64,000 nucleotides of DNA from assembly GCA_965216365.1 (NCBI GenBank), contig CBDCFT010000070.1, forward strand, positions 92,779 through 156,778. The letters run 5' to 3'. Every line of letters begins with the position of its first letter. Position 1 is the first letter of the stretch. Positions 40,828 to 64,000 of the stretch are shown piece by piece. The notes beneath the pieces were generated by a model. That model worked only from the letters and a program-made list of their open reading frames with translations. It did no database searches and was not told the DNA's origin. Source of the stretch: Arenicellales bacterium (GTDB taxonomy: Bacteria; Pseudomonadota; Gammaproteobacteria; Arenicellales; CBDCFT01). Position numbers and translations under genes: made by a program.

Positions 40828-40855
40828 ATTGAAGATTGTGCTCATGGGTAACGCG

Positions 40856-41728: not shown

Positions 41729-41981
41729 AATTCATCTCAAAATGCTTGTGCTTTGGTCGAGGGGTCATAACTGGGACGAAATAGTAAAGTATTTGACGGC
41801 GGCGTGCTTACGCCGGTTCTGGATCATGCCACCCGCCATTTTCAGCGTTGGTTTGCACGGCAGGTTGACCAAAGAGCAAACCCATCGAGCACACACTGTT
41901 TCTTGCATTTGTCTGACACGGGATCCAAATGGTTGGTTCATTGGCGGCAATGTACTTGTTATTGATGCCGTGTAACCATAC

Positions 41982-43924: not shown

Positions 43925-43945
43925 CTTGTTCTGAAGTGGAGTTAA

Positions 43946-45319
43946 TCAAGCCAGAGTCTTTATTGACTGAATGATTTCACTGTCGCGTTCTGCCCCAACC
44001 AGGTGATCGTTGGCAAACAGTATATTCATTACTTGTTCATTAGTTTGCTTAAGCACGAGCGAATCATCTTGAGTAGAATCCTTTGAAATATTCAAAACTG
44101 TGTCACTTCCGTAGGTGGGAATCACATCTTTCGCGAGATCTATAGGTTGTGGTGGGCGTTTGCCCTTTTGCAGACTACGGCAGTGTTTTCTGATTTGATT
44201 CCGATACATGGTGACACCGCGATCACCCGATACCAGATATTCTTTTTCGTGATCGGATATCGCACCCATTCCTTCAACCGCTTCCACATCGCCGGGGCTT
44301 ATTTGTTTTTGTTCGTAACTGCGGTCAATCAATTCGCCTTGTTCAATAAGTTGCATGCCTTCTTTGGTGTTGTATTCATGCGGATCGCCACGCTCGCCGA
44401 AATTACCCCATGCGTAAGCAATACAGTGTTCATCATCCACTGGTACCACCCATCGGGTAAATGCGCTGCGGCCAAAGTAGCGTGGTTTTGTTCCATCGGT
44501 AGCAAACGCTGATCCTGCCTGGGTAAAATTTGGCAGAATAAGCTCGTTAACTCTCACCCAAATGTTTTCGCCGACTCTTCGGGTCGCTGTACCAAGAAAA
44601 CGGATTTTCTCCCGGTGATAAAATGCGAGTTCACCCATCTTCCCGAAGCCGTCGGAGAACTGGGACTGGTGAAGAAATGCAGTGTGTACCGGATCAACAA
44701 TGGCATCCAGGACCTGTATCCAGTTGCAATTAAAAGGCGCAGCATATGGCGTCATGGTCATGCCCGGAATATTGAAAGTATCGTAAATGGGAAACTCGGG
44801 TAATTCCCGTTGCGGGCCAAGATAAGCAAATAACAATCCTTTATATTCCTTAACCGGGTAGGCGCCAAGACGCAATTTACTTTTAACATTGCTGACAGAA
44901 ATTGAATCCGCCGGTTCCCCGGGAACTTCCAGCACTGTACCGTCAACATCAAACACCCAGCCGTGATAGCAACAACGTATACCTCGCTCCTCACACCGCC
45001 CAAACTCCAGTGATGCGCGTCGGTGCGGGCATTTCTTGTGTACCAGGCCGTATTGCGCTGATTTATCGTGGAACAGCACGAGTTCTTCACCAAGTACTTT
45101 GACTAATCTCGGTCTGTCGCCAAGTTCGTTAGCGATAAAAACAGGATGCCAGTAACGTCTGAGATATTCTCCACACAACGTCCCCGGTCCGGTATGTACA
45201 AGGTCGAGAATTGACTTTCCTTCCCAGGTCTGGTGATAACCACAGTACGCTTCGAAGTTTCCCCTGTCTGGATTTTGTACTTCAGTCATAATTTTTTGAT
45301 CATTCAGGTTCAACGACAC
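43946..45319 (-). CDS. Rieske oxygenase alpha subunit (phthalate 4,5-dioxygenase-like clade)
   Basis: GPGT.CGEYLRRYWHP, CPH...CCYH, DPVHTAFLH. Confidence 0.88.
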   Translation of the reverse strand: MSLNLNDQKIMTEVQNPDRGNFEAYCGYHQTWEGKSILDLVHTGPGTLCGEYLRRYWHPVFIANELGDRPRLVKVLGEELVLFHDKSAQYGLVHKKCPHRRASLEFGRCEERGIRCCYHGWVFDVDGTVLEVPGEPADSISVSNVKSKLRLGAYPVKEYKGLLFAYLGPQRELPEFPIYDTFNIPGMTMTPYAAPFNCNWIQVLDAIVDPVHTAFLHQSQFSDGFGKMGELAFYHREKIRFLGTATRRVGENIWVRVNELILPNFTQAGSAFATDGTKPRYFGRSAFTRWVVPVDDEHCIAYAWGNFGERGDPHEYNTKEGMQLIEQGELIDRSYEQKQISPGDVEAVEGMGAISDHEKEYLVSGDRGVTMYRNQIRKHCRSLQKGKRPPQPIDLAKDVIPTYGSDTVLNISKDSTQDDSLVLKQTNEQVMNILFANDHLVGAERDSEIIQSIKTLA

Positions 45320-45647
45320 TAGTTAATGAGTTCGTTAATTGTATTATCAAGATAGTTTGCAAATTCGGTTCCATTACCGGGCGATGCAATGCAATGTCCC
45401 CAGGGGGTATTCATAAATCCGCAACTCGCCATTCTTTATCCAAATTCACTTCCAAGGCATTATCGACTGGTTGGAAATAAAGATCGTTTCGCAAATGTGA
45501 ACCGGTGTAAAATGTCGGCAACAATACAGCATTGTCCCGTGGTACATTTAGCTTGCCATAGGTTTTATAAACGAGTCGTGCGTTTGGCAGTACTCCGCCT
45601 TTGTGCAAATCAATATCACCGAGTTTATAAGTTTCAAATTCGGACAC
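45320..45647 (-). pseudogene. Internally deleted homoserine acetyltransferase-like alpha/beta hydrolase
   Basis: N-terminus (LVYKTYGKLN..DNAVLLPTFY) is joined directly to the C-terminal DLYF.P.DNALEV; PWGHCIASPG follows in a shifted frame; the nucleophile region is missing. Confidence 0.75.
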
Positions 45648-45679
45648 CGCGATAATACCTTTTTGATTTTTTGACTACA

Positions 45680-46087
45680 TCACTCTGGATTCAGCTCCAA
45701 ATGCGGTTTATCGACTTTCATATAAGCCATTTTCTTCGCTAGCTTGTTGTCTTTAAACTCCAGCACGTCCAAACCGCGAATCATCGATATATCTCCATCC
45801 TTATCTATGTTGAGTCGCCAACGGGTCAGTACTTTTCCAGTTTCGACTTCAGTGAACATATCTTCTCCGTCAAATTGAATCTTTCCACGTGACCCGCACA
45901 CAAGTGGTTCGAAAGCCGCTCTGATCGCGTCATGGCCGACGTGTCTTCCACCTTGGGAGTCCTCATAAACTCCATCTTCAGAAAAAGTTGAAACAACATC
46001 ATCAAGATTCATCCGATTAAACGCATCGACAAATTGATTGGTAAGTTCTAGTAATTCTTTTCGTCGGTCGGTCATGGCTTTGTTCAC
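45680..46087 (-). CDS. SnoaL/NTF2-like protein
   Basis: FVDAFN, FSEDGVYED, GHDAIRAAF, RGLDV. Confidence 0.85.
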   Translation of the reverse strand: MNKAMTDRRKELLELTNQFVDAFNRMNLDDVVSTFSEDGVYEDSQGGRHVGHDAIRAAFEPLVCGSRGKIQFDGEDMFTEVETGKVLTRWRLNIDKDGDISMIRGLDVLEFKDNKLAKKMAYMKVDKPHLELNPE

Positions 46088-46145
46088 AGGTTGGAAAGTG
46101 TGTTTTATACTGACAGTATAGATTCTAATTCAAGGTAATCTGGAA

Positions 46146-46445
46146 ATGCACATACTAATTCATCAGGACGGCGCATTATCATTGGAAGAACATGAAGAGA
46201 TGAAAAGCTTTTCCATAGTCGATAATACGAGTAACAACAATCGATCAGCACTAGAGAACATATCTGTGCCGGATGAAGATGATCACTACTGGGTCGACGC
46301 ACAAGCCGTAGTTGACTTGTCGCCACAAGCTCAGGATAAACAGTGGGTTGATAATTTCTGGAAAATGTTAAAAGCGGTAGAACCTTACGGTTATTTCGAC
46401 AGTAAGAACAAGCGCGTCAAAGCGCATGTTGAAAACAAAGCATGA
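46146..46445 (+). CDS. Small acidic hypothetical protein
   Basis: 99 aa ORF, AAGG RBS, protein-like composition. Confidence 0.6.
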   Translation: MHILIHQDGALSLEEHEEMKSFSIVDNTSNNNRSALENISVPDEDDHYWVDAQAVVDLSPQAQDKQWVDNFWKMLKAVEPYGYFDSKNKRVKAHVENKA

Positions 46446-46639
46446 TCGGCAATGGACTAAAGTCAATTGCACGAATCGGCGATTGCAAAGCGCCAGCTAT
46501 TATTGCCGGCGCCATATTCTCCGGTCATCGTTATGCCCGCGCACTGGACGCGGAAATCGATGCCGATAATCGAATCAAGTATGACCGGGTATTTTTTGTA
46601 GACCAATATAACGATATACCGGATATCGGCAGACGGTGA
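46442..46639 (+). pseudogene. C-terminal remnant of a trimethylamine dehydrogenase-type NADH:flavin oxidoreductase
   Basis: GLKSIARIGDCKAPAIIAGAIFSGHRYARALD matches the terminal IGD..AP..IA.A...GH..AR motif of the TMADH/histamine dehydrogenase family. Confidence 0.7.
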
Positions 46640-47631
46640 GTAATATGGAATTAACAAAAGAACAATTGGATGCATTTGACCAAAACGGATTTTTAGCCAT
46701 TGAGCGGGTGTTAGACGAGGAAGATTTATTGCCACTGGAAGGCGAATACCGCGTATTGCTCGATACTGTTGCCAAAAAACTTTTTCAACAAGGACGCATC
46801 TCGTCAACTTTTGAGGCGTATTCTTTCGATGAGCGCTTTGCATTAGTGGTATCGGCGTATCCGGATAGCATCAATCATTTCAACATATCGCTGCCGCTAA
46901 TCAACGGCGAGATAGATGCCTCAAATTATCATGCGCATACCGGGCCGGCAGTTTTCGGGTTATTGCGTAACAGTAAAATTCTGGATGTGGTCGAATCCGT
47001 CATTGGGCCTGAGATCGCTTCCAGTCCTGTACAGCAAATGCGAATGAAACCACCGCAGAAAAAATTGTCGCAGGAAAACGTGGCGCACTCCGGTGTTGGC
47101 CTGACGACCTGGCACCAGGATACTGTTGCGGTTTTACCCGAGGCGGATGACACAAATCAATTAACGGTTTGGGTTGCCGTTACCGATGCCAATGAAAACA
47201 ACGGATGTCTGGTATCCATTCCCGGCAGTCATCGAGAGGGAGCGCATCAACATGTGCCCGGCATCATTCCCAGGGAGCCTACGGTTCCTGCTGCTATTAT
47301 AGATGGCCGTGAAGGTGTCGTCCTGCCGGTAAAGCGCGGTGGGGTTGTTATATTTGATAAAAACAATATTCACTGCTCCTTACCCAATCGATCAAACCAA
47401 TTGCGCTGGAGTGTTGACATCAGATACCACCCCATCGGACAGCCCAGCGGTCGTCCTGCATTTCCGGGTTTTATCGCGCGCAGCCGGGCGAACCCGGCGA
47501 CCGAGCTAAAAGATGCGCAGCGCTGGAATCGGATGTGGCAGGAATCGAGACAACGCATCATACGCGGTGAATACAAGGGTCCTGTTTTTAGAGATTGGGA
47601 AGATCGAGCCACAAATTTCGTTGATTCGTAG
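46636..47631 (+). CDS. Phytanoyl-CoA dioxygenase (PhyH) family protein
   Basis: TWHQD, NGCLVSIPGSH, IHCSLPN, RWSVDIRY. Confidence 0.88.
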   Translation: MSNMELTKEQLDAFDQNGFLAIERVLDEEDLLPLEGEYRVLLDTVAKKLFQQGRISSTFEAYSFDERFALVVSAYPDSINHFNISLPLINGEIDASNYHAHTGPAVFGLLRNSKILDVVESVIGPEIASSPVQQMRMKPPQKKLSQENVAHSGVGLTTWHQDTVAVLPEADDTNQLTVWVAVTDANENNGCLVSIPGSHREGAHQHVPGIIPREPTVPAAIIDGREGVVLPVKRGGVVIFDKNNIHCSLPNRSNQLRWSVDIRYHPIGQPSGRPAFPGFIARSRANPATELKDAQRWNRMWQESRQRIIRGEYKGPVFRDWEDRATNFVDS

Positions 47632-50115: not shown

Positions 50116-52983
50116 ATGAAAATCCTAGAGACATCCGTATTCCGCGGGCCAAACATCTACGCCCTGTTTCCAGTCATCCGGCACCGGATAGACATCGGCA
50201 TTCTAGAGGAATGGCCGACCGGTCGGCTCGGTGCCGAATTTATCGATCCGTTACTCGAAGCGTTACCGGGCTTGCACGAACACGGGTGTTCCTACGGAGA
50301 ACCGGGTGGGTTCGTGCGCCGTCTGCGTGAAGATGAGGGCACCTGGATAGGTCACGTCTGGGAGCATGTTGCCCTCGAATTACAAAATGTGGCTGGGGCC
50401 AATGTCACTTTTGGCAAAACCCGTGGTGCCGGTGAAACCGGCATTTACAATATGATTTACGAATATGAGCAGGAGCAAGTGGGGTTACAAGCGGGTGAGC
50501 TCGCGATCAATCTTCTGCGACACCTTTTACCGGATGATTTGGTTGAAGCCGAACAGCGAATTGAAGACTTCAACTTCGACGAGGAACGCGACAGTTTTAT
50601 CCGTGCCGCGCAACGTCGTGCGCTGGGTCCCAGCACAGCTTCGCTTGTCAGAGCTGCGCGTGAACGCGACATCCCCTGGCTGCGCCTTAACGAATACAGC
50701 TTGATCCAACTAGGTCACGGGCGCTACCAGAAGCGTATCCAGGCGACCATTACCAGTGAAACACACTACATAGCGGTTGAACTCGCGTCGGACAAGGAAG
50801 CGACCAATAAAATCCTCGCCGACCTTGGCCTGCCCGTGCCACAACAACGCATGGTCTACGATCAAAAAAACGCGGTTCGAACAGCGGAACGCATCGGCTA
50901 TCCCGTCGTCATCAAGCCACTCAACGCGAACCATGGTCGCGGCATATCCGTTGGTGTAGAAGACCCGGATTCGGTCATAGCCGCCTTCGATTTCGCTCAG
51001 CAAAGCAACCGCAGTGGTCACGGAGTGATTATTGAATCGCTTATTCAAGGACTCGATCACCGTATGCTGGTAGTGAACGGCACACTGGTTGCGGTATCCA
51101 AACGGGTGCCGGGCCACGTGGTCGGCGACGGTAAACAAACGGTGGAACAACTCGTTGATGAGGTCAACTCCGATCCGCGTCGTGGCGTCGGACATGAAAA
51201 AGTGCTAACCCGTATCGAGCTGGATGCCAAGGCAATTCAACATCTGGAGGAACTGGGCTACACCAGGGGCACGGTTCCGCCTGCTGGTGAAGTGGTGTTT
51301 CTGCGTTCAACGGCCAACTTGTCGACAGGTGGGACGGCAATCGATGTTACTGATATCGTCCATCCCGACAACCGCGACATGGCGGTGCGCGCGGTCAAAG
51401 CGATCGGACTCGACATTGGCGGTGTCGATTTCCTGTCCGCGGATATTTCGAAATCATACAAAGAAAACGGCGCGGCAATTTGCGAGATAAATGCAGCACC
51501 GGGGTTTCGCATGCACGTCGCACCCAGCGAAGGGAAACCACGCGATGTTGCCAATGCGGTTATGGACATGTTGTTTCCGGTCAATGCGCCGAGTCGAATA
51601 CCGATCATCTCTATTACGGGTACGAATGGTAAAACTACCACCGCGCGGATGGTTGCGCACATCTACAAGTTGAGTGGCAATACGGTCGGATTAGCCACCA
51701 CCGATGGTGTTTATATAGATGGCAACCTGAGTGTTAAGGGCGACCTGACCGGCCCCATGGCGGCGCAAATGATATTGCGCGATCCCACCATTGATGCGGC
51801 AGTGCTTGAAACCGCCCGTGGTGGCTTGTTGCGGCGTGGTTTGGGTTATGAAGGATGCGATACCGGCGCCGTACTCAACATCGCTGCCGATCACCTTGGA
51901 TTGCGTGGCATTGATACGCTGGAAGAAATGGCACGAGTAAAACAGATTGTCGTAGAAGTAGCTAAAGACACCGCCGTACTCAACGCCGATGACGAGCTTT
52001 GCCTGCGCATGGCCGAACGTACCAAGGCGGAGAACCTGTGTTATGTGACGATGAACGCCGGTCATCCGTTAGTGCGTGAACACGTTCGCGCCGGCGGGCG
52101 TGCGGTCGTTTTAGAGCAGGGCATGAATGGGCAGATGATCACCATTTATGACAATAGCGCGCACATTCCATTGATGTGGACTCATCTGATCCCCGCCACG
52201 CTGGACGGTAAGGCGATGCACAACGTTCAGAACGCCTTGTTTGCGACTGCCATCTGTTTCAGCATGGGCAAGAGTCTGGAGGATATCCGTCAAGGTTTGC
52301 GCACCTTTGCCAGTTCCTACTTCCAGGCGCCGGGCAGGATGAATGTGTTTGACGAACACCCGTTTAAGGTCATTCTCGACTACGGGCACAACCCGTCTGC
52401 CATTGAAGCGATGTGCCGGCTGGTCGATCAGTTGGAGCCGGAGGGCAAACGCATTTGCGTGTTTACTTTGCCCGGTGACCGGCGCGACGAAGACATCGTC
52501 GAGGCCGCGCGAATCGTGACTGGTCATTTTGACCACTATATTTGCCGGCGTGACGATAATTTGCGCGGACGTGGCAACGAAGAGGTGCCGCTCATTCTGA
52601 AAACGGCGTTACTTGAGGGTGGCGTGGCGCAGGATGCAATCAGTGTTATTCCGGATGAAACCGAAGCTGTCGACGCCGCGTTACGCTTGGCTGATGCGGG
52701 CGATTTGATATTGATTTTTGGCGATAATATTTCGCGTTGCTGGAAGCAGATCATTTATTTTAATCGGCCGCAGGAAGGAATCGCGGAAACAGATGCTTCT
52801 GAACCAGAATCCGCCGTGGTTCAGATTGTGCAGACCGAAGATGCACCGGACGATCCGCTGGCCGAGGCGACCCCGGTACCCGATGCACCCGAGGTGCCTG
52901 AGTCCGTATTGCTGCAAGGCATGCGAATGGTGCGTGACAGTCGCGGTGTGCGATTGGCGAATGAGCCAGAAGAAGCAGACTGA
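50116..52983 (+). CDS. cphA: Cyanophycin synthetase CphA1
   Basis: N domain HGCS...GHVWEHVALELQ; ATP-grasp KPLNANHGRG, ANLSTGG, EINAAPG; Mur module ITGTNGKTT, ETARGG, DYGHN. Confidence 0.96.
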   Translation: MKILETSVFRGPNIYALFPVIRHRIDIGILEEWPTGRLGAEFIDPLLEALPGLHEHGCSYGEPGGFVRRLREDEGTWIGHVWEHVALELQNVAGANVTFGKTRGAGETGIYNMIYEYEQEQVGLQAGELAINLLRHLLPDDLVEAEQRIEDFNFDEERDSFIRAAQRRALGPSTASLVRAARERDIPWLRLNEYSLIQLGHGRYQKRIQATITSETHYIAVELASDKEATNKILADLGLPVPQQRMVYDQKNAVRTAERIGYPVVIKPLNANHGRGISVGVEDPDSVIAAFDFAQQSNRSGHGVIIESLIQGLDHRMLVVNGTLVAVSKRVPGHVVGDGKQTVEQLVDEVNSDPRRGVGHEKVLTRIELDAKAIQHLEELGYTRGTVPPAGEVVFLRSTANLSTGGTAIDVTDIVHPDNRDMAVRAVKAIGLDIGGVDFLSADISKSYKENGAAICEINAAPGFRMHVAPSEGKPRDVANAVMDMLFPVNAPSRIPIISITGTNGKTTTARMVAHIYKLSGNTVGLATTDGVYIDGNLSVKGDLTGPMAAQMILRDPTIDAAVLETARGGLLRRGLGYEGCDTGAVLNIAADHLGLRGIDTLEEMARVKQIVVEVAKDTAVLNADDELCLRMAERTKAENLCYVTMNAGHPLVREHVRAGGRAVVLEQGMNGQMITIYDNSAHIPLMWTHLIPATLDGKAMHNVQNALFATAICFSMGKSLEDIRQGLRTFASSYFQAPGRMNVFDEHPFKVILDYGHNPSAIEAMCRLVDQLEPEGKRICVFTLPGDRRDEDIVEAARIVTGHFDHYICRRDDNLRGRGNEEVPLILKTALLEGGVAQDAISVIPDETEAVDAALRLADAGDLILIFGDNISRCWKQIIYFNRPQEGIAETDASEPESAVVQIVQTEDAPDDPLAEATPVPDAPEVPESVLLQGMRMVRDSRGVRLANEPEEAD

Positions 52984-52993
52984 CACGTACGGT

Positions 52994-54712
52994 ATGAAAT
53001 TGACAAATGTACGCCGGTTAACCGGTGTCAATTTCTTTTCGAAACTGCCCGGTGCAGCCGCCGATGCTGCAGTGCCGGATGAACATAAAGGTTTTGCGGT
53101 CGCGATCTGGCGCAGATACATGCGGCAATTATTAGACGCCATTGGCTGGACGCATGAGAACATCGTCGCGCGGTCTTATCCCGGAGGGGTAAGTCTGATG
53201 ACGACGGCGCCGATCGATGCGCTGTACGCTGCGACCGACCTGATCGAGCGTGCCTGGGAGTTAACCTGTGACGAATTGCGTGGTCAATCCGATTTCAATA
53301 TTGATACCGTAGCTGAAGAAATCACCGACAAGATCAGTGCCGAAAGCAATTCAAATCTGATGGCGTTGGCGAACGCGGCTAGTACACGCGACATGACGTT
53401 TCTCGGTGACGATGGAAAGATTTCGCTGGGTCTTGGTGCCGGTTGCAAGGTTTGGCCGGATAACGATGCACCGCAGGAGGACGACATCGATTGGAGCGAA
53501 ATTCACGATGTCCCCGTTGCTATGGTCACGGGTACAAACGGCAAATCGACGACTGTGCGTTTAACCGCTGCCATCGGTGCTGCCGCGGGCTTGACCGTCG
53601 GCTTGTCGTCAAGTGACTGGGTGCGTGTTGGTAAGGAGATTATTGATGAAGGCGATTACTCCGGGCCTGCTGGCGCCCGTCTGGCCGTGCGCGACACACG
53701 CGTCAACCTTGCCATTATCGAAACGGCGCGTGGCGGTCTGATGCGACGCGGATTGCCACTACCCCAGACGGATGCTTGCCTCATTACCAATATCGCTGCC
53801 GATCATCTGGGTGATTATGGAATAACGGATGTCGCCGCCTTGGCGGATGCTAAATTTTTATTGACGCATGCTGTAAAGCCTGATGGCCGCATGGTGTTGA
53901 ATGGCGATGATCCTGAACTCGTCAGCCGCAGTGTCCGATTCGGCGGTGACATCACGTGGTACGGCCTGTCGCTGGACGAACAAGCGCTGAACTGTTGGAC
54001 CGATGCCGGTGGCCATGCGGTATTTGTAAAAGATGGCGTAATGACGCTTGCACGGCAGCGCGAACACATACCTGTTTTGCCGGTAGTGGATTTTGCACCT
54101 GCTTTACACGGCGCTGCGAAATTCAATATTTCCAATGCGCTGGGTGCGATTGCGCTGGCTTCGGCACTGGACTTGCCCGTATCGGCGATGACCCGGGCGT
54201 TGTCTGATTTCAAAGGGACGCCGGAGGAGAATCCGGGGCGCGGGAATTTTATGGAAATCGGTGGTGTTAATATTTTGATCGACTTTGCCCATAACCCGCA
54301 TGGTTTAGCCGCGTTGGTTGAGGCAACAAATGGGATATCTGCCAAACGACGACTGTTTCTGCTTAGTCAGGCTGGGGATCGCAGTGATGACGATATCCGT
54401 GAAATGACGCGAATCGTTTGGCGCGTTCAACCGGATATGATCATCGTTAAGGAACTCGAAAGTAAGTTGCGTGGACGAAAGGTCGGTGAAATACCAGCCA
54501 TCTTTTTAGATGAGCTGCGTGTGCTCGGCGTTTCCACAGATAGAATTATGCAGGCCGATGATGAAATGCAATCTGTTTATCAGGCGTTGGAGTGGGCGCA
54601 GCCCGGCGATTTTCTCGTATTGCTGGTTTACGACGATCGGAATCGGGTGCTCGCTTTGTTGCAGGATTTGAAAAACAAAAACTGGCAGGTCGGCGAGCGT
54701 ATAGATCGCTAA
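52994..54712 (+). CDS. CphA-like Mur-ligase protein lacking the ATP-grasp core
   Basis: CphA-like N-terminus (VRRLTGVN); VTGTNGKSTT follows about 180 aa in; ETARGG, ADHLG, DFAHNP, AGDRSD present; no ATP-grasp motifs. Confidence 0.85.
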   Translation: MKLTNVRRLTGVNFFSKLPGAAADAAVPDEHKGFAVAIWRRYMRQLLDAIGWTHENIVARSYPGGVSLMTTAPIDALYAATDLIERAWELTCDELRGQSDFNIDTVAEEITDKISAESNSNLMALANAASTRDMTFLGDDGKISLGLGAGCKVWPDNDAPQEDDIDWSEIHDVPVAMVTGTNGKSTTVRLTAAIGAAAGLTVGLSSSDWVRVGKEIIDEGDYSGPAGARLAVRDTRVNLAIIETARGGLMRRGLPLPQTDACLITNIAADHLGDYGITDVAALADAKFLLTHAVKPDGRMVLNGDDPELVSRSVRFGGDITWYGLSLDEQALNCWTDAGGHAVFVKDGVMTLARQREHIPVLPVVDFAPALHGAAKFNISNALGAIALASALDLPVSAMTRALSDFKGTPEENPGRGNFMEIGGVNILIDFAHNPHGLAALVEATNGISAKRRLFLLSQAGDRSDDDIREMTRIVWRVQPDMIIVKELESKLRGRKVGEIPAIFLDELRVLGVSTDRIMQADDEMQSVYQALEWAQPGDFLVLLVYDDRNRVLALLQDLKNKNWQVGERIDR

Positions 54713-54956: not shown

Positions 54957-55886
54957 TCACGTTTTGTACTGGCGAGCATTTAGTTCGTAAGTAGAGAAGA
55001 ACCTTTTGCTGTGATCAACGAATGTGCTTAGTAATCGCGTCGGACGTAACTTTCCTTGGCGAACGATTACGATGTCCATTGATGGAACTATGTCCTTGAT
55101 CTCTCGTTCTATCACATGGTTAGCGTCATAGCTCAGATTATGATGTGGGCGAGTGACAAGTACCGAAAATCCAGCGCCGTTAGCAACAAGTGCCCGAACT
55201 GTTTCGAATGATGGCGAACGCAAACTGATTTGCGGGCTTAGTCCCTTGCTTTCGAATAAGGCGGAGAAGTATTCGCGGCTGCGTGGTAAATCCAATAACA
55301 CCATTGGATATCGAGCAAGTTGCTTTAATCGTAGGGCGCTTTTTTCAACGAGCGGGTGTTCTGCAGGGAGTATCACGTAAGGTCTTAAACTCGCGAGTGG
55401 TTCCAATTCGAGTGCAGGGGGTACATCAAGCTTATACACGATGACAACATCGTATCGGTTGCCCTCTAAGCCCGCAATGAGGGTCTCCGTATTTTCTTCA
55501 TAGAGCTGTATTTCGACATCAGGGTAGTGTTTTAGAAACTGCGTGACTAGCGCCGGGATATACATAGACGCGATTGGCCCGAAACAACCGATGTGCAAAC
55601 GACCTCGCATTTGTTTGCCCAACCCTAGCGCGTTTTGACGGAAGTCTTCGGTATGGGCCAATAAACCATTAACCTCGGCGAATACACGTCCGCCGGCGGA
55701 AGTTAACGACACGCCCTGTGCGTGATGTCGCACAAACAATTGAACGTTTAGGGCATTTTCGAGCTTGGCGATAGCCGCAGAAATCGATGGTTGTGAAATA
55801 TGCAGCTCACGTGCGGCAACGGCAAGGCTGCCGGATTCGGCGACTTTAGCGAAGTATTCAAGTTGTTTGAGTGAAAAATTAAACAA
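54957..55886 (-). CDS. LysR family transcriptional regulator
   Basis: QLEYF...AARELHISQPSIS HTH; effector domain with PMVLLDLPRSREYF. Confidence 0.95.
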   Translation of the reverse strand: MFNFSLKQLEYFAKVAESGSLAVAARELHISQPSISAAIAKLENALNVQLFVRHHAQGVSLTSAGGRVFAEVNGLLAHTEDFRQNALGLGKQMRGRLHIGCFGPIASMYIPALVTQFLKHYPDVEIQLYEENTETLIAGLEGNRYDVVIVYKLDVPPALELEPLASLRPYVILPAEHPLVEKSALRLKQLARYPMVLLDLPRSREYFSALFESKGLSPQISLRSPSFETVRALVANGAGFSVLVTRPHHNLSYDANHVIEREIKDIVPSMDIVIVRQGKLRPTRLLSTFVDHSKRFFSTYELNARQYKT

Positions 55887-55895
55887 GTTAAAAAC

Positions 55896-55928
55896 TATCT
55901 AAATATAAGATAAATAATATTTTATCTT
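55896..55928. promoter_or_regulatory. LysR-type T-N11-A box with an overlapping palindrome
   Basis: TATCT-N7-AGATA (55896-55912) and AAGATAAA-N6-TTTATCTT (55907-55928) in the divergent promoter. Confidence 0.6.
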
Positions 55929-55983: not shown

Positions 55984-57435
55984 ATGCTTAAAACCGGCGA
56001 CGAATACCGTGAATCAATACGTGATGGGCGCGAAGTATGGATTGACGACGAACGTGTTGAGGATGTGCCTTCGCACCCGGCATTTAAGCCGATTGTTGAT
56101 ATTCGCGCACGTATCTACGATATGGCGCACGAATCCAGGTATCGTGACACCATGAGTTACCTTGATGGTGACGAACGATTTGCCATCGGTTTGAAGCTAC
56201 CAAAGACACAGGAGGATTGGGCGCTCAAACGCGAATCGGTAGCAACGGTGATGAGAGATATCGGTGGTGTAGTGACCCGTGTTGGCGACGAGACAGCAGG
56301 TGAAATGTGGTCGTTGTATGATGGCAGCGATATGCTGGCGGAGGTTGACCCACGGTTTAGTGAGAATATCGCTAGACATATTGATAAAGTCATTGTCAGC
56401 GATACGTTTCATGTATCGGCTAATACCGATCCCAAGGGTGATCGATCTAAACGGCCACAAGATCAAGATCCGGACATGTTGTTGCACGCGGTTAAAGAAA
56501 CCGACGCTGGAATTGTGGTACGCGGTGCAAAATTCGAAACGGCTGCTGCTTATGCGAATCAGGCGTTTGTAAAACCGACCATTGCCAACTGGGGTGACGC
56601 CAAACTTTCCGACTATGCTGTGGGATTTATATGCCCAATGAATGCTCGAGGATTGAAGCATATCTGTCGCAGTGGGTTTGCTGGAGTAAAAAGACAGGAG
56701 GACTACCCACTCAGTAACGGTTTTGATGAGGTCGATACATTGTTGATTTTCGATAATGTCTTGATTCCCTGGGAAGATGTATTGTTCTACCAACACACGA
56801 AAGCAGCCTCCTTCATTCGAGGAACGCTGCATCGCTATAGCGCCTATGCGTTTGTGTTACGCATCTTACATATTGCAGATCTGATGATTGGAACTGCATT
56901 ATTCAATGTCCGCCAGACCGGCCTGGATAACCAGCCTGCCGTGAGGGAAAAAATCGCACAGCTTGTGTGTTACCGCGAGGGTATTAATGCACATTTAACG
57001 GCAGCGATCGCCACCGCAGAACGAAGCCCACGTGATTTGCTCATGCCAAACCAATCGTTACTCTATACGGGTAGAGTACTCGCCTGTAGTCAATTACCGG
57101 CGATGGTTCATTTGGCACGTGAGCTGTGCGGTGGTCAGGTATGTGTAACACCAAATGCAGCGGCCTTTGAAGGGCAAGGGTCGAGCGAATGGCTGCAGAA
57201 GTACTACAACATTAATGAATTTTGGAACGCTACCGACCGACGGAAATTACTCGCGTTTGGTCGAGATTTACTTAACTCTGACTATGCCGGTCACAAAATA
57301 ACGTTCCAACTCTTCGCACAATCTCCACCGTTCGCTCATCTAAATGCCGTGTATAACAATTTTGACTTTTCAGAGACTTTGGGGTTTGTACGAACTGCCG
57401 CGGGTCTCTCCGACAAAGTTATGCAGCAAAAATAA
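55984..57435 (+). CDS. 4-hydroxyphenylacetate 3-hydroxylase family flavin monooxygenase (oxygenase component)
   Basis: TGDEYRESIRDGREVW, DPKGDRS, GIVVRGAK, FDE.D...IFDNVLIPWE. Confidence 0.88.
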   Translation: MLKTGDEYRESIRDGREVWIDDERVEDVPSHPAFKPIVDIRARIYDMAHESRYRDTMSYLDGDERFAIGLKLPKTQEDWALKRESVATVMRDIGGVVTRVGDETAGEMWSLYDGSDMLAEVDPRFSENIARHIDKVIVSDTFHVSANTDPKGDRSKRPQDQDPDMLLHAVKETDAGIVVRGAKFETAAAYANQAFVKPTIANWGDAKLSDYAVGFICPMNARGLKHICRSGFAGVKRQEDYPLSNGFDEVDTLLIFDNVLIPWEDVLFYQHTKAASFIRGTLHRYSAYAFVLRILHIADLMIGTALFNVRQTGLDNQPAVREKIAQLVCYREGINAHLTAAIATAERSPRDLLMPNQSLLYTGRVLACSQLPAMVHLARELCGGQVCVTPNAAAFEGQGSSEWLQKYYNINEFWNATDRRKLLAFGRDLLNSDYAGHKITFQLFAQSPPFAHLNAVYNNFDFSETLGFVRTAAGLSDKVMQQK

Positions 57436-57467
57436 AGCTGTTTCTAAACTACTAAGGAGACACAAAA

Positions 57468-57889
57468 ATGGTACACACAAGAATTCGAAGGTTTAACACA
57501 GCGGATATGTACCCGGGTAAACAGATGAGTAATGACGTTTGCATGGCTGTTCGTGCTGGCAATCATGTATTCTTGCGTGGTCAAACTGGCTTTGACCTCG
57601 ATGGCAAGTTTCATGGTGTCGGTGATCCTTCGGCAACAGGCAGAAATGGCGATGCAGTGCGTCCGAAACACTTCTTAAGGAAGCGGGTGCGGAACTCGAA
57701 CACATATGTAAAACTACTATATACCTAACAGATCGAGCTTATCGAGAAGAAGTGTATACAGTTATTGGAAAATGGCTAAAGGGAGTGTTTCCTTGTTCGA
57801 CGGGCCTGATCATTGACGGTCTGGCGCTTCCCGAAATGGTCATGGAAATCGATGTTGAAGCGATAATCCCTGACGATGCTTGCAAATAA
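57468..57889 (+). pseudogene. RidA/Rid family protein with two +1 frameshifts (probably errors)
   Basis: HTRIRRFNT, LRGQ, then QAEMAMQCV, then LKEAGAELEHICK...PCSTGL...EIDVEA in successive frames. Confidence 0.8.
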
Positions 57890-57929
57890 ATTTCCCAATA
57901 GTAGGAACTGGAAAAGCCTGTCGGTTCCA

Positions 57930-59079
57930 ATGTCTGATCTGAACACGATACTGGGTAATCTAAAGAAACTCGCTGCTCTGCCACTCGAACAAGCGACAGC
58001 GATGTTCTCCGAGATGTACACCTCAGCGGGATTGCTTGAGTTGGAGAAAGAGCGAATATTTAATGATCAGTGGTTGTGCGCGGGGCGTGTCGATGCAATC
58101 CCCAATCCAGGTGACTACTTAACCTACTTTATTGGGGCGCAACCCATTGTGATCATTCGCCAGGTCGATGGCGAAATTCTCGCCTTTGCTAATGTGTGTC
58201 GTCACCGAATGATGCAATTGTTATTCCGGCAGTGGTACGTGTCCACGCAAACGCATTATTTGTCCCTACCATGCCTGGACCTACTCTATTGACGGCAATC
58301 TTGTAGCTGCTCCGTATATGCAGGACCGCCCCGGCTTTAGTAAGTCTGCCTATCCGCTGCCGCGTGTGCGTTGCGAACAATGGGAAGGGTGGATTTACAT
58401 CACACTTAACCAGGGAAATATGTCGGTAGCAGTACTCTTGTCTGAGTTACAAGGATGTGGTCGCCCGACTATGGTATGACCAACTATGTGCAGATCGTAC
58501 AGGAAGACCATGTTTGGAACACCAATTGGAAGTTGCTAACTGAAAATTTCATGGAGGGTTATCATTTACCAATTGCTCATCGAGAAACTGTGGGTGGTCA
58601 TTTCCCGGTTAAAGACACACGCTTCTCGTCATTACCCCCGAATCCCGCGTTCATTTATCAGTACTTTACCAAGCAGGAAACGGCACCGGTTGGAAATGCA
58701 CATCCAGACAATACTCGACTTGCAGGAGATCAGCGCCGCACGTCTATTTTGCCCACTGTGTTTCCTTCACATATGTATGCATTAGCGCCGCGATCATCTT
58801 TGGTATTTGTCATTGCAGCCTGTGGACTGTGATCATGTGCATATTCGTTACGGAGCTGCGTTGGCACCTGAAGTACTAGCTGCGAGCGATAACCCGGATA
58901 AATTGAAGAATGACGTTATCGAGTTCCTTACAAAGGTTAATGCAGAAGACCGTTACGTAGTCGAAGGGATCGCAAGAGGTCTTAAAGCACCTTTATCGGT
59001 ATCCGGTCCGTTGTGTTGGCTAGAACGCGAAAATCATGAGTTTACTCAGTACCTGGCCCGGCAACTTTGTAACGAGTAG
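57930..59079 (+). pseudogene. Rieske oxygenase alpha subunit split by frameshifts (probably errors)
   Basis: NVCRH / CPYHAW / NWK...ENFMEGYHL..AH / NAEDR spread over frames; shifts near 58225, 58453-58466 and 58791. Confidence 0.8.
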
Positions 59080-59190
59080 CCGCTTAACTCTACTATCCGT
59101 TGTATTCCGGATAATGTAGTTTTCCACGTGGTGAAGTACGCCTCGAGCGATATCCGAAAATCTGGTAACCAATTGAATGATGGAGTCAAT

Positions 59191-60336
59191 GTGGAGCGTA
59201 ACGAGTTCTTAGAGGGTATGAGTCACGCTGCGTGTACGGTTTCGGTAATAACGACCGATGGCGTACAGGGTCGTGCCGGGCTAACGGTTAGTGCGATGTG
59301 TTCTGTATCTGCCGATCCACCCTCATTGTTGGTGTGTGTACACCATCAGAGTAAAGCCTGCGAAGCGTTGATTAAAAATGGTGTACTGTGTCTGAATGTG
59401 TTGCGCGATGATCAGTCGGACATCTCGGATACTTTTGCTGGTCGCATGAAAGCGCCTGATGAGGATCGGTTTTCCTGTGGAGACTGGGCACGTTTGACTA
59501 CAGGAGCGCCCGCGCTGAAAGGGGCGCTGGTTAGCTTTGATTGCCTGATCAGCGAACATTTTCAGTTTGGATCACACTATATTTTTATCGGCGAGGTCAA
59601 AGACATTTGCTATCGTAAAAGCGGACGTGCATTAGTCTACGCCAATCGTGCTTACGGTCGTTTGCTCGAGCTTGACAGTTTTATCGCAACATCCAAGGCA
59701 GAAAATGAACGCCAATGTTTACGTCTTGGCTGCTTTGTTACTTTAGGGCCATTCTTTCTGCCACGCCTGATCGCGGATTTTTCGCGAAAACACAGCGCTG
59801 TTTTCCAGTTGTTCGAGGGCACGCAAAAACAGCTTCTCCGCGGCCTGCAGAACAACGATTTTGACATTGCCTTAATGTACGATTTCAATATAAGTGACTT
59901 TGTATCTACACATTCGCTCGCAAAGGTTTTACCTCACGTTTTGTTGCCAGCAGCTCATCCATTGGCACAATCGACACAAATTTCACTACATGAACTCGCG
60001 AACGAACCTATGGTATTACTGGATATTCCCCCCAGCCGAGATTACTTCTGTTCTTTGTTTGAGGAAATAGGAATCATGCCGCACATCGCATTTCGTTCGC
60101 CCTCTTTCGAGATGGTGCGTGGCATGGTCGGCAATGGCTTAGGATATACGTTATTGGTTTCAAAACCAGCAAACAGTATGAGTTATGATGGTTCGGCTTT
60201 GGTGTCGCGACCAATCAAAGAGAACACCATGCCCGGTCACATTGTGCTGGCGCACAGAAAAGATGGCGTCTTATCGGAGTTGCATGACCATTTTATATCT
60301 CACTGTTCCACATTTTTTTCGCAATGGCGCAACTAA
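59191..60336 (+). CDS. Flavin reductase (HpaC-like) fused to a LysR effector-binding domain, no HTH
   Basis: GLTVSAMCSVSADPPSLLVC and GSHYIFIG, then LRLGCF, PMVLLDIPPSRDYF and RSPSFE in one open frame; GGAG RBS before GTG 59191. Confidence 0.85.
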   Translation: MERNEFLEGMSHAACTVSVITTDGVQGRAGLTVSAMCSVSADPPSLLVCVHHQSKACEALIKNGVLCLNVLRDDQSDISDTFAGRMKAPDEDRFSCGDWARLTTGAPALKGALVSFDCLISEHFQFGSHYIFIGEVKDICYRKSGRALVYANRAYGRLLELDSFIATSKAENERQCLRLGCFVTLGPFFLPRLIADFSRKHSAVFQLFEGTQKQLLRGLQNNDFDIALMYDFNISDFVSTHSLAKVLPHVLLPAAHPLAQSTQISLHELANEPMVLLDIPPSRDYFCSLFEEIGIMPHIAFRSPSFEMVRGMVGNGLGYTLLVSKPANSMSYDGSALVSRPIKENTMPGHIVLAHRKDGVLSELHDHFISHCSTFFSQWRN

Positions 60337-60640
60337 GGATAGGGGTGCCGAGAATGTTCGCGTAGTGTACCTGATCGGAATTAAGTTGGACTTGAAGGCG
60401 TAGTTGAATAAGGGAGAGACACTATGCAATACCACCACATTCTGTTATGCAGTGTGTACGTCGTCAAAATTATTTGGGTTAATGGGGATTTTGAATTACA
60501 AGATAGTTCAGTTCATCGGGTTAGAGTTAGTTGGTTATCGTAATACAATGGTTCGATCACAAGCCCTGTAAAAATAACGCTAAATATTTTCTCCACAGAT
60601 GTAGTAAGCTTGCAAACCCAATCGATGGGGGTGTTTATTT

Positions 60641-61243
60641 ATGAGTTCCTCGAACAAAGTCATTGGAATTGTTGGTAGTTACCGAAAAGATGGTATCGTA
60701 GATCAAGCGATCACCGAGGTGCTAGATGCGGCCGCACTTGAAGGAGCAAGTACAAAAAAGTTTTACCTGATCGATAAGCGCATCGAGTTTTGTACAAATT
60801 GCCGTGCGTGCATGCAGGTAGCAGGTTCAGACAGAGGCAAATGTGTTCTCGAGGATGATATGGAAGTCATGCTTCAAGAAATAGAAAGTGCTACGAGTAT
60901 TGTATTAGGATCGCCAGTGAATTTCGGAAACGTAACGGCCGTTATGCGTATGTTTATGGAACGGTGCGTTGGTTATGCCTACTGGCCATGGGAACGCACC
61001 GAGCCAGAGATCAGGGACCCAAAGATCCACAAGAAGGCTGTGCTTGTCTCTGCAAGCGGTGCGCCAGCGCGAAGGCGCAGAACTTTTCGAGAAGCAACCC
61101 ATGCGCTGAAATATTTAACCTGGCTTCTGGGCGCACACCCCATTGGATTTCTTTGGGCGCATAACATAAACAAAGAAGATATGAGGTTGCCTGACAAGGT
61201 CGTTCGAAAGGCAAAAAGGCTAGGACGGAAGCTGGCAACTTAG
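60641..61243 (+). CDS. Flavodoxin-like iron-sulfur flavoprotein / NADPH-dependent FMN reductase family
   Basis: GSYRKDG, CxxCxxC...C, GSPVNFG. Confidence 0.85.
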   Translation: MSSSNKVIGIVGSYRKDGIVDQAITEVLDAAALEGASTKKFYLIDKRIEFCTNCRACMQVAGSDRGKCVLEDDMEVMLQEIESATSIVLGSPVNFGNVTAVMRMFMERCVGYAYWPWERTEPEIRDPKIHKKAVLVSASGAPARRRRTFREATHALKYLTWLLGAHPIGFLWAHNINKEDMRLPDKVVRKAKRLGRKLAT

Positions 61244-61329: not shown

Positions 61330-62210
61330 TTATTCCGGATCGTTCGGTTCGAACACTCGTACCTGCGCCGGTTTTGTGGCTGACACCGCCGCTCGTTTCA
61401 TGCCTTGTGAGTTAAAAGGCATGACGAAATGACCTGATTTGTCGATTGCGATAAGGCCTCCATCCCCTCCAAGTTGTTTTACTTGCGCTAGTGTCGCCTG
61501 CGCCGCCGATTCAAGCGATGCATCGCCGTAACGCACGTGGGCGGCAACATCGTATGCCGCGTTGGTTCTGATAAACGCTTCGCCAATGCCGGTACAGGAT
61601 ACGGCGACCAGATCGTCCGCCCATGTACCTGCACCAATCAGGGGAGTGTCGCCTACGCGGCCGGGTCGTTTGTTGAACGTGCCGCCGGTAGACGTTGCTG
61701 CGGCAAGTCTGCCGTTTGTATCCAGCGCAACAGCGCCGACGGTGCCGTGGCCGGCCGCAGACTCGCCTGAACCGTGATCTTTATGTTCAATATAATAAGT
61801 GTCTGCATTAGTTACCGCATCCAGACCATTGGCCAGCGCGAAATCCGGGCGCCTTGAGCGGTCAGCATAACGTGCCTGCCATCTTCCAATACGCAAAGCG
61901 CGGCTTTTACCGGATTCACGATATTACACACTGCGGATACCGCACCGGCTTTGCGTGTACTGCCGTCCATGATGCTCGCGTCGAGTTCCACGATGCCGTC
62001 GGTATTAGGTGCTGACCCTTTGCCCGCGACATACAGGCCTGAAACCTCCATCGCAGCAACCATCTCAGTAACAGTTTCCAACGCGCTCTGACCGGACTTC
62101 AACATTTGTTCTCCATTAGAGATTAGTTCAGCCAAGTGTTGGCGTTGTTGCGCGTAGTCGATGTGAGGCTGGGCGCCCGCGCCGCCGTGAATTGCCAGAG
62201 TGTAAGTCAT
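61330..62210 (-). pseudogene. iaaA: Isoaspartyl peptidase/L-asparaginase with one -1 frameshift near 61847 (probably an error)
   Basis: AIHGGAG, ELDASIMDG / GTVGAVA, ATSTGG, GRVGDTP, SCTGIGE. Confidence 0.85.
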
Positions 62211-62317
62211 CGTCAGTGTAATGGATTTGCAGCGTGCGGAAACCACACCGATTTTAGAAGAAGAAAGCGATTGCAGCGTTTTGCTATGGACGTCATTGCG
62301 AGTATTTTCCAGTACTC

Positions 62318-63449
62318 TTACTCAGGCCCATTAAACGAGGCTGTGCTACTAAAGCACTTATTTGTCTCACTAGCGGATTTAGGAAAAATGCTCACGGACG
62401 AATTTGTAACCGCGCCGGTTTGTGAAATAAAAGAATTGTTTTCGAGACATCGTACTATCTCATAAAGATAGTCTTTGCCAAAATCGATTATGTCGTCAAA
62501 AGTTGAAACAGTAGATGTCACATTCGAATTGAGCAAAGCCGTTCCCGTTTGCGGATTGAATTGATCGCCTTGTTTCAAGTAATGATTTTCTACGTTGGTA
62601 ATTCTCCAGTTATTCTCGTGATCGACACTTGATGTGGCATCCAGTAAATCCACGATGTAGACCCCGTTAACGCCATAAACCGTCAACACCGGTTTGCCCG
62701 GTTCGCTTTCTTCCATGACCAGGCTAGTGTCTTCATCGATGCCAAAACCAAATCTTGATTTAGTATCCGATGCCAGACGAATCAAACGGCCCTGCCTGGG
62801 TACGTGCGCTAAGGTGGGTATCCAATATTCCGTGGGGAAAGAATCCAAAACCACCATGCGGGTTATAGGTCAGCCTACCGGGTTCGAGATTGTGCGCGAA
62901 AGGAACAGAGCCGTACAAAATGGATTTATGAGGCCAGCCGCCCGTAACCATTACGTGCGGAGTTCCAGACATAATTACCGCGCCTGCACTGGTTCCGCCA
63001 ATTGGCATTCCCAGCTCATGTTTTTTCCGGATCAATTTTAGTGCTTTGGAGTCTTTTCCTTCTTTATTCGTCAGCAATCTATATAAAAGCGATTGATCGC
63101 CACCGCCAAAAAAAATTCCGGTTAGGGGTCTGAGTTGCGCAAGAATTTCTTCGTTTTCAGCCGCATCAGGGTTATTAACATGAATTCCAATCCACTCCGC
63201 ACGAACACCGTACTGCGCAAAGGTTTCGATATAAGATTGTTGGGTCTTGTAGTAGTTTTCTCTCGAAGCTGCGGTAATAACTCCAACTCGCGCGTTATTG
63301 CCGCCAGCGAGACTGATAAATTTGCCGTATATCTCGTTGTTGTCGTCGCTCAGATTCCCGCCAACAAGTACTAAAGACCCTGACGCAGCGCACGACAGTG
63401 AGGCTAAGCAAAAAGTCAGTGTTGTGAAAAATTTAACCAGGTGTTTGAT
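62318..63449 (-). pseudogene. Probably secreted cyanophycinase (CphE-like) with a +1 frameshift near 62799; start codon unclear
   Basis: Signal-like KHLVKFFTTLTFCLASLSCAA; LVLVGG, FFGGGDQS, GGTSAGA, DTH / RQGRL, GIDEDT. Confidence 0.75.
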
Positions 63450-63571
63450 AGTGTTGATTTCGGTTTCTAGGGAATAAATTTTGATACTTGTTTTGCGCAG
63501 GTCATACCTAATAATTGAAAAAAGCCCAATCAGGTTTGTCCATTGAAGGTTAAATAGATCGCCTGAAGTTT

Positions 63572-64000
63572 TTACGTCTCCCGAATACTCCAATCCAGTC
63601 CCAATTTTGGCATTAGTTTCATAAAAGGGTCGGGGTCCAGTTCTTCGACGTTAGCCAGTCGGAGGACGTTCCAATCGCCTCTGGCTACGAGAATCGCGGC
63701 CGTCACCAATGGCACAGCGGTCGTATACGAAATGGCTTGGGAACCTATATCTTTGTAACACTCGGCGTGATCACAAAGAGTATAGATAAAGATCTCCTTT
63801 TCCTTTCCGTCTTGAGAGCCTTTCACAAGACAGCCGATACAAACCATACCGGAATAATCCTTGGCAAGAGTTGGCGGGTCTGGTAACACCGCTTTCAACA
63901 GTTTGATGGGCACCACAGGCTTGCCTTGCACTTGTACCGGCTCGCTTGATAAAAGACCAAGTTCTTTCAATACGTTGAAACAGTTAATGTATTGATCGTT
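63572..64000 (-). CDS. Carboxynorspermidine dehydrogenase / saccharopine dehydrogenase family, C-terminal part (runs off the window)
   Basis: LKAVLPDP, CIGCLVKG, SQAISYTTAVP, NVEELDPDPFM. Confidence 0.85.
   Translation of the reverse strand, partial: NDQYINCFNVLKELGLLSSEPVQVQGKPVVPIKLLKAVLPDPPTLAKDYSGMVCIGCLVKGSQDGKEKEIFIYTLCDHAECYKDIGSQAISYTTAVPLVTAAILVARGDWNVLRLANVEELDPDPFMKLMPKLGLDWSIRET

Follow-up and report, generated by a model that had tools for sequence, protein, structure and literature searches.

A flavin reductase fused to a HinK-like LysR effector domain without a DNA-binding region: a possible ligand-gated reductase in an Arenicellales bacterium and many other bacteria

The subject of this study is a single gene that encodes a flavin reductase followed by a LysR-type effector-binding domain, located in a 64,000-nucleotide (nt) stretch of DNA from an Arenicellales bacterium (assembly GCA_965216365.1, contig CBDCFT010000070.1, positions 92,779 to 156,778 of the forward strand). 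This whole stretch is called the window, and coordinates are those of the window unless another contig or locus is named. The source genome (G000) is a draft of 82 contigs with 5.2% contamination. The gene, which carries no helix-turn-helix (HTH), and its parts are arranged as follows:

59191..60336 (stop included), + strand: fusion gene, flavin reductase plus HTH-less LysR effector domain, 381 amino acids (aa), likely GTG start
59218..59664, + strand: Flavin_Reduct domain (PF01613) of the HpaC/RutF/TftC type, Pfam E 1e-36, full profile
59665..59706, + strand: interdomain linker of about 20 flexible residues, from the low-confidence stretch of the AlphaFold2 model and the Pfam boundaries
59707..60309, + strand: LysR_substrate domain (PF03466), HinK-like, without HTH, Pfam E 1.9e-33

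The open frame spans 59128-60336 on the plus strand and encodes 402 aa when counted from its first GTG. The true start is likely the GTG at 59191, giving 381 aa, because the copy in the protein collection (P0004) is 381 aa long and 100% identical, the homologues begin at the same M-x-R-x-x-F-L-x-G-M-S motif, and a GGAG lies 5 nt upstream (59182-59185). In the Pfam search, where positions follow the numbering of the 402-aa form, Flavin_Reduct covers residues 31-179 (126.8 bits, cut-off 27, spanning positions 1-152 of the 153 in the profile) and LysR_substrate covers residues 194-394 (116 bits, cut-off 28, spanning positions 4-205 of 209). HTH_1 (PF00126) was not found in the fusion protein at E <= 0.01, nor among the precomputed Pfam domains of its 120 best homologues. 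An earlier reading of the DNA letters, referred to here as the sequence-only reading, had described one uninterrupted frame with an HpaC-type reductase and then a LysR effector domain devoid of HTH. The open reading frame (ORF) and the Pfam search confirm this description, and the domain coordinates it gave are near the Pfam ones (about 59218-59664 and 59707-60309). The AlphaFold model contains two confident domains (mean predicted local distance difference test score, pLDDT, 87.3; predicted template modelling score 0.57), joined by a linker with pLDDT < 50 at residues 151-172 (from 59641).

A separate reductase gene and a LysR fragment could have been joined in this genome by an assembly error or a recent deletion, and several genes of this assembly are indeed read in two or more frames. 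However, PF01613 and PF03466 are both present in all of the 120 best of 1356 protein-collection matches (375-436 aa, 47-100% identity), and the fused frame is encoded in 80 of the 80 genomic loci examined. In this way, the fusion claimed by the sequence-only reading held in a domain-architecture search, and the linkage of the two domains proved to be conserved. The 80 loci, which also form the neighbourhood set used below, are the best of 428 stretches encoding a relative in a scan of one genome per prokaryotic species; the figure of 428 comes from patterns inside the reductase domain, may include unfused reductases and is thus no count of fusions. A frameshift in locus L073 lies within the reductase domain and not at the junction. 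A complete genome of the same genus (G001) has an orthologue that is 88% identical and uninterrupted, with no insertion or deletion over 1146 nt. Between these two genes, the ratio of nonsynonymous to synonymous substitution rates (dN/dS) is 0.106 over the whole gene; taken separately, the reductase half gives 0.092 and the sensor half 0.114, and by this measure both halves are under purifying selection. Additionally, contigs of public sequencing runs (Logan) covered parts of 57400-60400, with none on about 57600-58000, and a 190-nt contig of one run matches 59647-59836 exactly. The sequence support across the junction that the sequence-only reading called for is thereby present, but it counts for little alone, as the run may be the window's own source sample. 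Because 120/120 homologues and 80/80 loci are fused and both halves are under purifying selection, the fusion is, by these comparisons, no assembly artefact and is conserved in many bacteria; the probability that it arose from a joining error in this genome is vanishingly small.

Among representatives at 50% identity, both domains occur in one stretch in 23 of the 150 best proteins, down to 35% identity, and within the window's order a full-length match was found in 5 of 41 genomes. Carriers in Gammaproteobacteria belong to Arenicellales, Poriferihabitaceae, Steroidobacteraceae and Ectothiorhodospiraceae, and those in Alphaproteobacteria to Paracoccaceae, Roseobacteraceae, Hyphomicrobiales, Rhodospirillales and Kiloniellales. 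Three metagenome-assembled genomes of Actinomycetota are further carriers.

The N-terminal domain matches the solved structures 2r0x (E 3.4e-35), CobR 3cb0 (2.8e-34) and TftC 3k86 (5.8e-29) by sequence, and more distantly the reductase domain of C1 from Acinetobacter baumannii (5zc2, E 5.7e-07). In structural comparison by VIA-align, its Z scores are 21.8 to CobR and 21.5 to TftC, over 142-147 residues. The domain is complete, and these matches place it near flavin oxidoreductases with proven NADH-dependent activity and show its homology to the reductase domain of C1. The NCBIfam equivalog cut-offs were not reached (RutF, 165.3 bits vs 254.75; HpaC, 127.1 vs 205.95), and the domain is, by score, related to both HpaC and RutF and a member of neither equivalog.

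For the fused sensor domain, the closest solved relative is HinK of Pseudomonas aeruginosa (6m5f/3fzv, E 6e-47 by sequence). The two agree with 39% identity and a root-mean-square deviation (rmsd) of 1.2 over 208 columns in Foldseek, and with Z 28.7 and rmsd 1.8 over 209 aligned residues in VIA-align, where the other LysR effector domains gave 27.7 (2ql3) or at most 23.9 (the rest). Because homology starts at about HinK residue 85-91, the winged HTH and most of the linker helix are gone from the fusion. At 28 positions the same residue is at least 80% conserved in the fused domains and in the co-located regulators alike, including T184, P187, E209, Y230, H256-P257-L258, L276-L277-D278, S282 and Y285-F286, as well as R310, G316, G318, P326 and G334. 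By analogy with BenM/CatM-type structures, several of these positions presumably lie in loops lining the LysR ligand cleft.

In the window, the fusion gene closes a cluster with the order LysR / HpaB / RidA / Rieske oxygenase / fusion, which is the same in G001. The other four genes are:

54957..55886, - strand: full-length HinK-like LysR, 309 aa, divergent from the oxygenase gene, with HTH_1 (6-65) and LysR_substrate (92-295)
55984..57435, + strand: HpaB-family flavin-dependent oxygenase, 483 aa, with HpaB_N and HpaB (Pfam)
57468..57883, + strand: RidA-family gene, in two frames in this assembly (two pieces in tblastn with the intact G001 RidA)
57930..59079, + strand: Rieske / Ring_hydroxyl_A oxygenase (GbcA-like), in several frames (Pfam on the pieces)

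The window HpaB scores under the NCBIfam cut-offs for true 4-hydroxyphenylacetate hydroxylases, and its orthologues beside the fusion are 66-78% identical across phyla. The Rieske orthologue in G001 is intact (381 aa), and its best NCBIfam match is GbcA, below the cut-off.

The neighbours of the fusion were counted from six-frame ORFs of the 80 loci by BLASTP (E <= 1e-10 plus coverage thresholds) within a radius of 8 kb, with family names taken from Pfam scans of cluster representatives. The counts are floors, because the flanks reach the full 8 kb in only 56 of the 80 loci:

HpaB orthologue: within 8 kb in 37/80 loci, at most 300 nt from the fusion in 21
Full-length HinK-like LysR: within 8 kb in 26/80 loci, at most 300 nt from the fusion in 11
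RidA: within 8 kb in 26/80 loci, at most 300 nt from the fusion in 12
DUF1028: within 8 kb in 30/80 loci, at most 300 nt from the fusion in 5
M20 (ArgE-like) deacylase: within 8 kb in 32/80 loci, at most 300 nt from the fusion in 5
GbcA-like Rieske oxygenase: within 8 kb in 12/80 loci, at most 300 nt from the fusion in 8

At least three of HpaB, RidA, DUF1028 and M20 are found together in 24 of the 80 loci. On plasmids pAMI6 of Paracoccus aminophilus and pTAV3 of P. versutus, the order is HpaB-RidA-DUF1028-ArgE-LysR-fusion, with a divergent HutD gene. The same operon on pUSP1 of Aminobacter sp. MSH1 (L102) has a stand-alone flavin reductase of 187 aa directly upstream of HpaB, which is 46% identical to the N-terminal domain of the fusion (E 4e-43), and an aspartate ammonia-lyase gene is near the operon. 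Similarly, a stand-alone reductase adjoins HpaB on pPM400 of Bacillus badius (L103), where the identity to the N-terminal domain is 31%. With L102, L103 and pW43B of Parasedimentitalea marina (L104) included, orthologous HpaB-RidA-DUF1028 operons thus carry either the fusion, a stand-alone reductase or no adjacent reductase at all, a natural series in which the contribution of the sensor domain could be studied. Because sister operons hold a stand-alone reductase in the corresponding place, the fusion appears to fill the reductase role of a two-component HpaB-type system, and its reductase probably serves the HpaB-family enzyme.

The sequence-only reading had stated that the fused domain mirrors the cluster's own LysR. 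The best solved match of the window LysR is also HinK (3fzv/6m5f, E 4.7e-71, residues 3-294), and in BLASTP the fused domain and this LysR share 77 of 207 residues (37%, E 1e-51). All five motifs named as shared in that reading can be read in the alignment, as pairs of fusion and LysR: LGCF / IGCF, PHVLLPAAHPL / PYVILPAEHPL, PMVLLDIPPSRDYF / PMVLLDLPRSREYF, RSPSFEMVR / RSPSFETVR and MSYDG / LSYDA. On this evidence both belong to the HinK subfamily. Across 29 pairs, the identity between fused domain and co-located LysR is 26-37% (median 31%), and in the window's own genome the fused domain has slightly higher identity to the LysR on contig C3 (40%) than to the neighbouring LysR (37%).

A quick IQ-TREE tree of effector domains, with support from the Shimodaira-Hasegawa-like approximate likelihood ratio test (SH-aLRT) only, was built from 81 fused domains, 32 domains labelled as LysR and three distant LysRs of the same genome as outgroup. 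One of the 32 LysR-labelled rows is the second ORF of the frameshifted L073 fusion, which was entered twice. In this tree, 30 full-length regulators form one clade (support 98) containing 27 of the 28 co-located LysRs, the neighbour in the window, its G001 orthologue and the contig C3 LysR; the remaining co-located row is the mislabelled L073, placed among the fused domains. The fused domains and these regulators together are split from the outgroups and the contig C12 LysR (SH-aLRT 97), and the tree does not resolve the fused domains into one clade. Because the identity is 26-37% and the regulators form a clade of their own, the similarity is old: on the tree and identities, fused domain and LysR are old paralogues and not recent copies of each other. 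The likeness between the two thus stands as shared membership of a HinK-like subfamily, and an origin of the fused domain as a recent copy of the neighbouring LysR is rejected. Sub-clades of fused domains and of regulators hold the same sets of loci, which points to long co-inheritance of fusion and regulator. The divergent LysR and HpaB genes are 97 nt apart, and this spacer contains a perfect 8-bp inverted repeat, AAGATAAA-N6-TTTATCTT (55907-55928), a candidate LysR operator.

The second of the two functions proposed by the sequence-only reading starts from this kinship. In the form considered here, the HTH-less domain would form mixed dimers or tetramers with the LysR of the cluster, and in this way enzyme level, redox state or ligand state would feed into transcription of the operon. 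The common subfamily, the full-length HinK-like LysR that 26 of the 80 loci include (11 of them right next to the fusion) and the matching sub-clades would all suit such a decoy or co-regulator. However, the supposed partners are only 26-37% identical, any two genes of one operon would be just as likely to be inherited together, and within 8 kb such a LysR is absent from 54 of the 80 loci. Furthermore, in five of five fusion-bearing genomes tested there is no full-length HinK-like LysR at E <= 1e-30, the sole match to the window's LysR being the fusion's own domain, so the domain must have a role that needs no such partner. The decoy is weakened by these results and appears improbable; it cannot be the general function of the family, and it is possible where a LysR is co-encoded, as in the window.

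The gene sets around the fusion resemble a described pathway, that of hinFLHG/hinK in Pseudomonas putida U and P. aeruginosa, whose published functions and gene order match HpaB-RidA-DUF1028-M20-LysR. In the literature, hinF is described as a FAD-monooxygenase (Enzyme Commission number, EC, 1.14.13.5, imidazoleacetate 4-monooxygenase), hinL as an enamine deaminase, hinH as an amidase, hinG as an amidase (EC 3.5.1.8) and hinI as an aspartate ammonia-lyase (PMC6467879). HinK is described as a LysR regulator answering to imidazole-4-acetate (PMC8231116, PMC10912698). A hin-like gene set, with at least three of the four enzyme families, recurs at 24 of the 80 loci that encode the fusion. The Paracoccus and Aminobacter replicons match it too, that of Aminobacter also with aspartate ammonia-lyase. 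The available parts of the Pseudomonas hin descriptions mention no fused reductase (PMC6467879, PMC8231116). The window cluster has LysR, HpaB and RidA, putative counterparts of hin genes, with a Rieske oxygenase in place of DUF1028 and M20. Because HinK senses imidazole-4-acetate and many related loci look like hinFLHG, we tentatively suggest imidazole-4-acetate or a related heterocyclic acid as the ligand class for the family, and with less confidence for this window.

Our best reading of the fusion, held with moderate confidence, is that of a ligand-gated reductase. In two-component flavin monooxygenases, a reductase that runs without a loaded oxygenase wastes reduced nicotinamide adenine dinucleotide (NADH) and makes hydrogen peroxide (H2O2). 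The fusion would be the NAD(P)H:flavin reductase component of such a system, with the HpaB-family enzyme at 55984-57435 as its oxygenase partner and perhaps also the 75%-identical paralogue on contig C3. Its reductase domain would reduce free flavin mononucleotide or flavin adenine dinucleotide and release it for capture by the oxygenase, and the C-terminal effector-binding domain would work in cis as an allosteric sensor. Without ligand, the sensor would keep the reductase in a low-activity state; a pathway metabolite bound in the cleft between the two sensor subdomains would make flavin reduction faster. The supply of reduced flavin would then be limited to times when substrate is available to the oxygenase, sparing the cell futile NADH oxidation and the production of H2O2. 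The sensor most probably acts on the attached enzyme, because it is under selection, keeps the residues shared with the regulators and occurs without a matching regulator. The gating step itself we regard as about as likely as not. Of the two functions put forward by the sequence-only reading, the substrate-gated reductase is the better supported, by the C1 precedent, selection, the shared residues and the operon position, and it is what we infer.

Several results weigh against this reading. In the AlphaFold2 monomer the relative placement of the two domains is not defined and no interdomain contact is resolved, so the model lends no structural support to occlusion of the reductase by the sensor. 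In 27 of the 80 loci, none of HpaB, RidA, DUF1028 and M20 was found within 8 kb. The genomes of four Steroidobacteraceae-type loci (L072, L083, L085 and L087) have no HpaB orthologue anywhere at E <= 1e-20, and the fusion family is therefore not tied to an HpaB oxygenase. Other orphan loci have heterogeneous neighbours with no oxygenase, as judged by Pfam from 32 proteins encoded near the fusion at 18 such loci; two of the 32, at L015 and L074, are MttB, which is taken as an incidental neighbour. An HpaB orthologue was detected in 7 of 300 genomes sampled from the class, that of the window included; among five of the other six, two have the fusion, which adjoins HpaB in one. As for the pathway, the orthology of HpaB-RidA-DUF1028-M20 with hinFLHG is drawn from function names and gene order in the papers. 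Pfam detected no DUF1028 or M20 in the window cluster, where a GbcA-like Rieske oxygenase stands instead, and for this reason the substrate of the window system may differ from imidazole-4-acetate.

The missing interdomain contact and the orphan loci without pathway context would also fit a domain that has lost ligand control and serves the reductase only as a scaffold for dimerisation or tetramerisation, or as a solubility domain, and LysR effector domains are established oligomerisation modules. However, the positions common to ligand-responsive regulators of the same subfamily are strongly conserved, the dN/dS of the domain is 0.11, and the stand-alone reductases of sister operons manage without a scaffold; a purely structural module is thus unlikely. 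The evidence for ligand binding would apply equally to a domain that inhibits or tunes flavin reduction on binding a product, a downstream intermediate or some unrelated metabolite, or that captures substrate for hand-over to the oxygenase, and in orphan contexts the signal cannot be the HpaB substrate. Against a signal of the opposite sign stands the only characterised precedent, C1, which is activated by the substrate (PMC10816480), and we consider this alternative rather unlikely. Very improbable in our view is a combination in which LysR effector domains have left transcription to become plug-in allosteric sensors on enzymes, and the fusion both gates flavin supply by a pathway metabolite and, where a HinK-like LysR is co-encoded as in the window, forms mixed oligomers with it. 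Ligand and enzyme abundance would then jointly set flux and transcription, linking a two-component monooxygenase to its own LysR in the manner of a trigger enzyme.

The Steroidobacteraceae-type loci (L072, L083, L085, L087 and L089-L091) show a conserved, housekeeping-like neighbourhood of the fusion, consisting of a divergent MFS gene, a GGDEF protein, the fusion, RNase R, SpoU methylase, ribosomal protein L9 and DnaB.

In the window cluster, net insertions relative to G001 are found in RidA (+2 bases) and in the Rieske gene (+4), and none in LysR, HpaB or the fusion. In contigs of other public runs, the extra base at 58790 is absent from three contigs (two runs; one contig otherwise identical) and that at 58223 from one contig. 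The frameshifts are therefore at least partly assembly error or strain variation, and the view of RidA and Rieske as pseudogenes of a decaying cluster was rejected on the same contigs. Contig C12 holds an intact RidA-Rieske copy, which could have disturbed assembly or polishing here. Two overlapping frames also occur in an FAA-hydrolase family gene, an Asparaginase_2 gene and a TonB-dependent receptor, the frameshifted stretches being 39971-40827 and 61330-62246 of the window and 1872-3768 of L096 (G000 contig C12); frameshifts seem to be common in this draft genome.

A second, paralogous cluster lies on contig C3 (L095, 3218-13476) and has no flavin reductase. It consists of arginase-family, DUF1028, histone-deacetylase-family, RidA, HpaB (75% identical to that of the window) and DUF2390 genes, a DDE (insertion sequence) transposase, PhyH, a flavin monooxygenase and a HinK-like LysR, and its DUF1028 is the only one in the genome. 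The genome has a single fusion, which may serve both oxygenases, that of the window and that on C3.

Downstream of the fusion, at a distance of 300 nt, there is a gene for an NADPH-dependent FMN reductase of the FMN_red/Flavodoxin_2 family (60641-61243), a second and unrelated reductase type. It is probably outside the cluster, because synteny with G001 stops at 60338. Elsewhere in the window, genes of catabolic type for oxygenases and hydrolases are numerous at 40829-47631 and 62760-63593 (three dioxygenases of the PhyH family, one LigXa-like Rieske oxygenase, one SnoaL-like protein, one alpha/beta hydrolase and one Peptidase_S51), and the large ORFs at 50116-54712 resemble Mur-ligase/ATP-grasp enzymes by eye only.

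We found no description of this fusion architecture in open-access papers and bioRxiv, and public annotation calls the protein only 'flavin reductase' or 'LysR substrate-binding domain-containing protein'. If the ligand-gated reading is true, LysR effector domains, which are among the most abundant bacterial sensor modules, can function without DNA binding. The idea is directly testable, with the family present in cultured, tractable Paracoccus and a candidate ligand class given by the kinship with HinK. In biocatalysis, such a domain could find use as a ligand-controlled switch of flavin supply.

Three known types of protein can be set beside the fusion. Stand-alone reductases of the HpaC/RutF/TftC type have the fold and motifs of its N-terminal domain in common with it; they lack the sensor domain, and their chain stops shortly after the R-A-Y motif, where the linker of the fusion begins. 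HinK (PA0218; PDB 6M5F, 3FZV) is the closest solved relative both of the fused domain and of the window's LysR. In contrast to the fusion, it has a winged HTH and binds DNA, in response to imidazole-4-acetate (PMC8231116, PMC10912698), and has no enzyme attached; the fusion begins only at about HinK residue 85-91, and DNA binding by that route is impossible.

The third is C1 (AbHpaC), the reductase of p-hydroxyphenylacetate 3-hydroxylase from A. baumannii (PDB 5ZC2), which to our knowledge is the only reductase with a built-in substrate sensor against wasteful NADH oxidation and H2O2 formation. In C1, p-hydroxyphenylacetate binds the C-terminal MarR domain and relieves autoinhibition, and flavin reduction rises at least 30-fold; built-in substrate sensing is called uncommon among flavin-dependent monooxygenases (PMC10816480). 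Like the fusion, C1 combines a reductase domain, homologous in the two proteins, with a C-terminal ligand-binding domain derived from a transcription factor. C1 is thus the working model for the fusion. However, the MarR-type sensor of C1 and the LysR-type effector domain of the fusion are unrelated in fold, the two proteins differ in partner oxygenase and substrate, and gating has been measured for C1 and is only proposed for the fusion. Because its C-terminal domain is LysR_substrate and not MarR-type, the fusion would at most work like C1 and is no member of that family. If gating is true, evolution has reached this solution twice, the second time by way of another transcription-factor fold.

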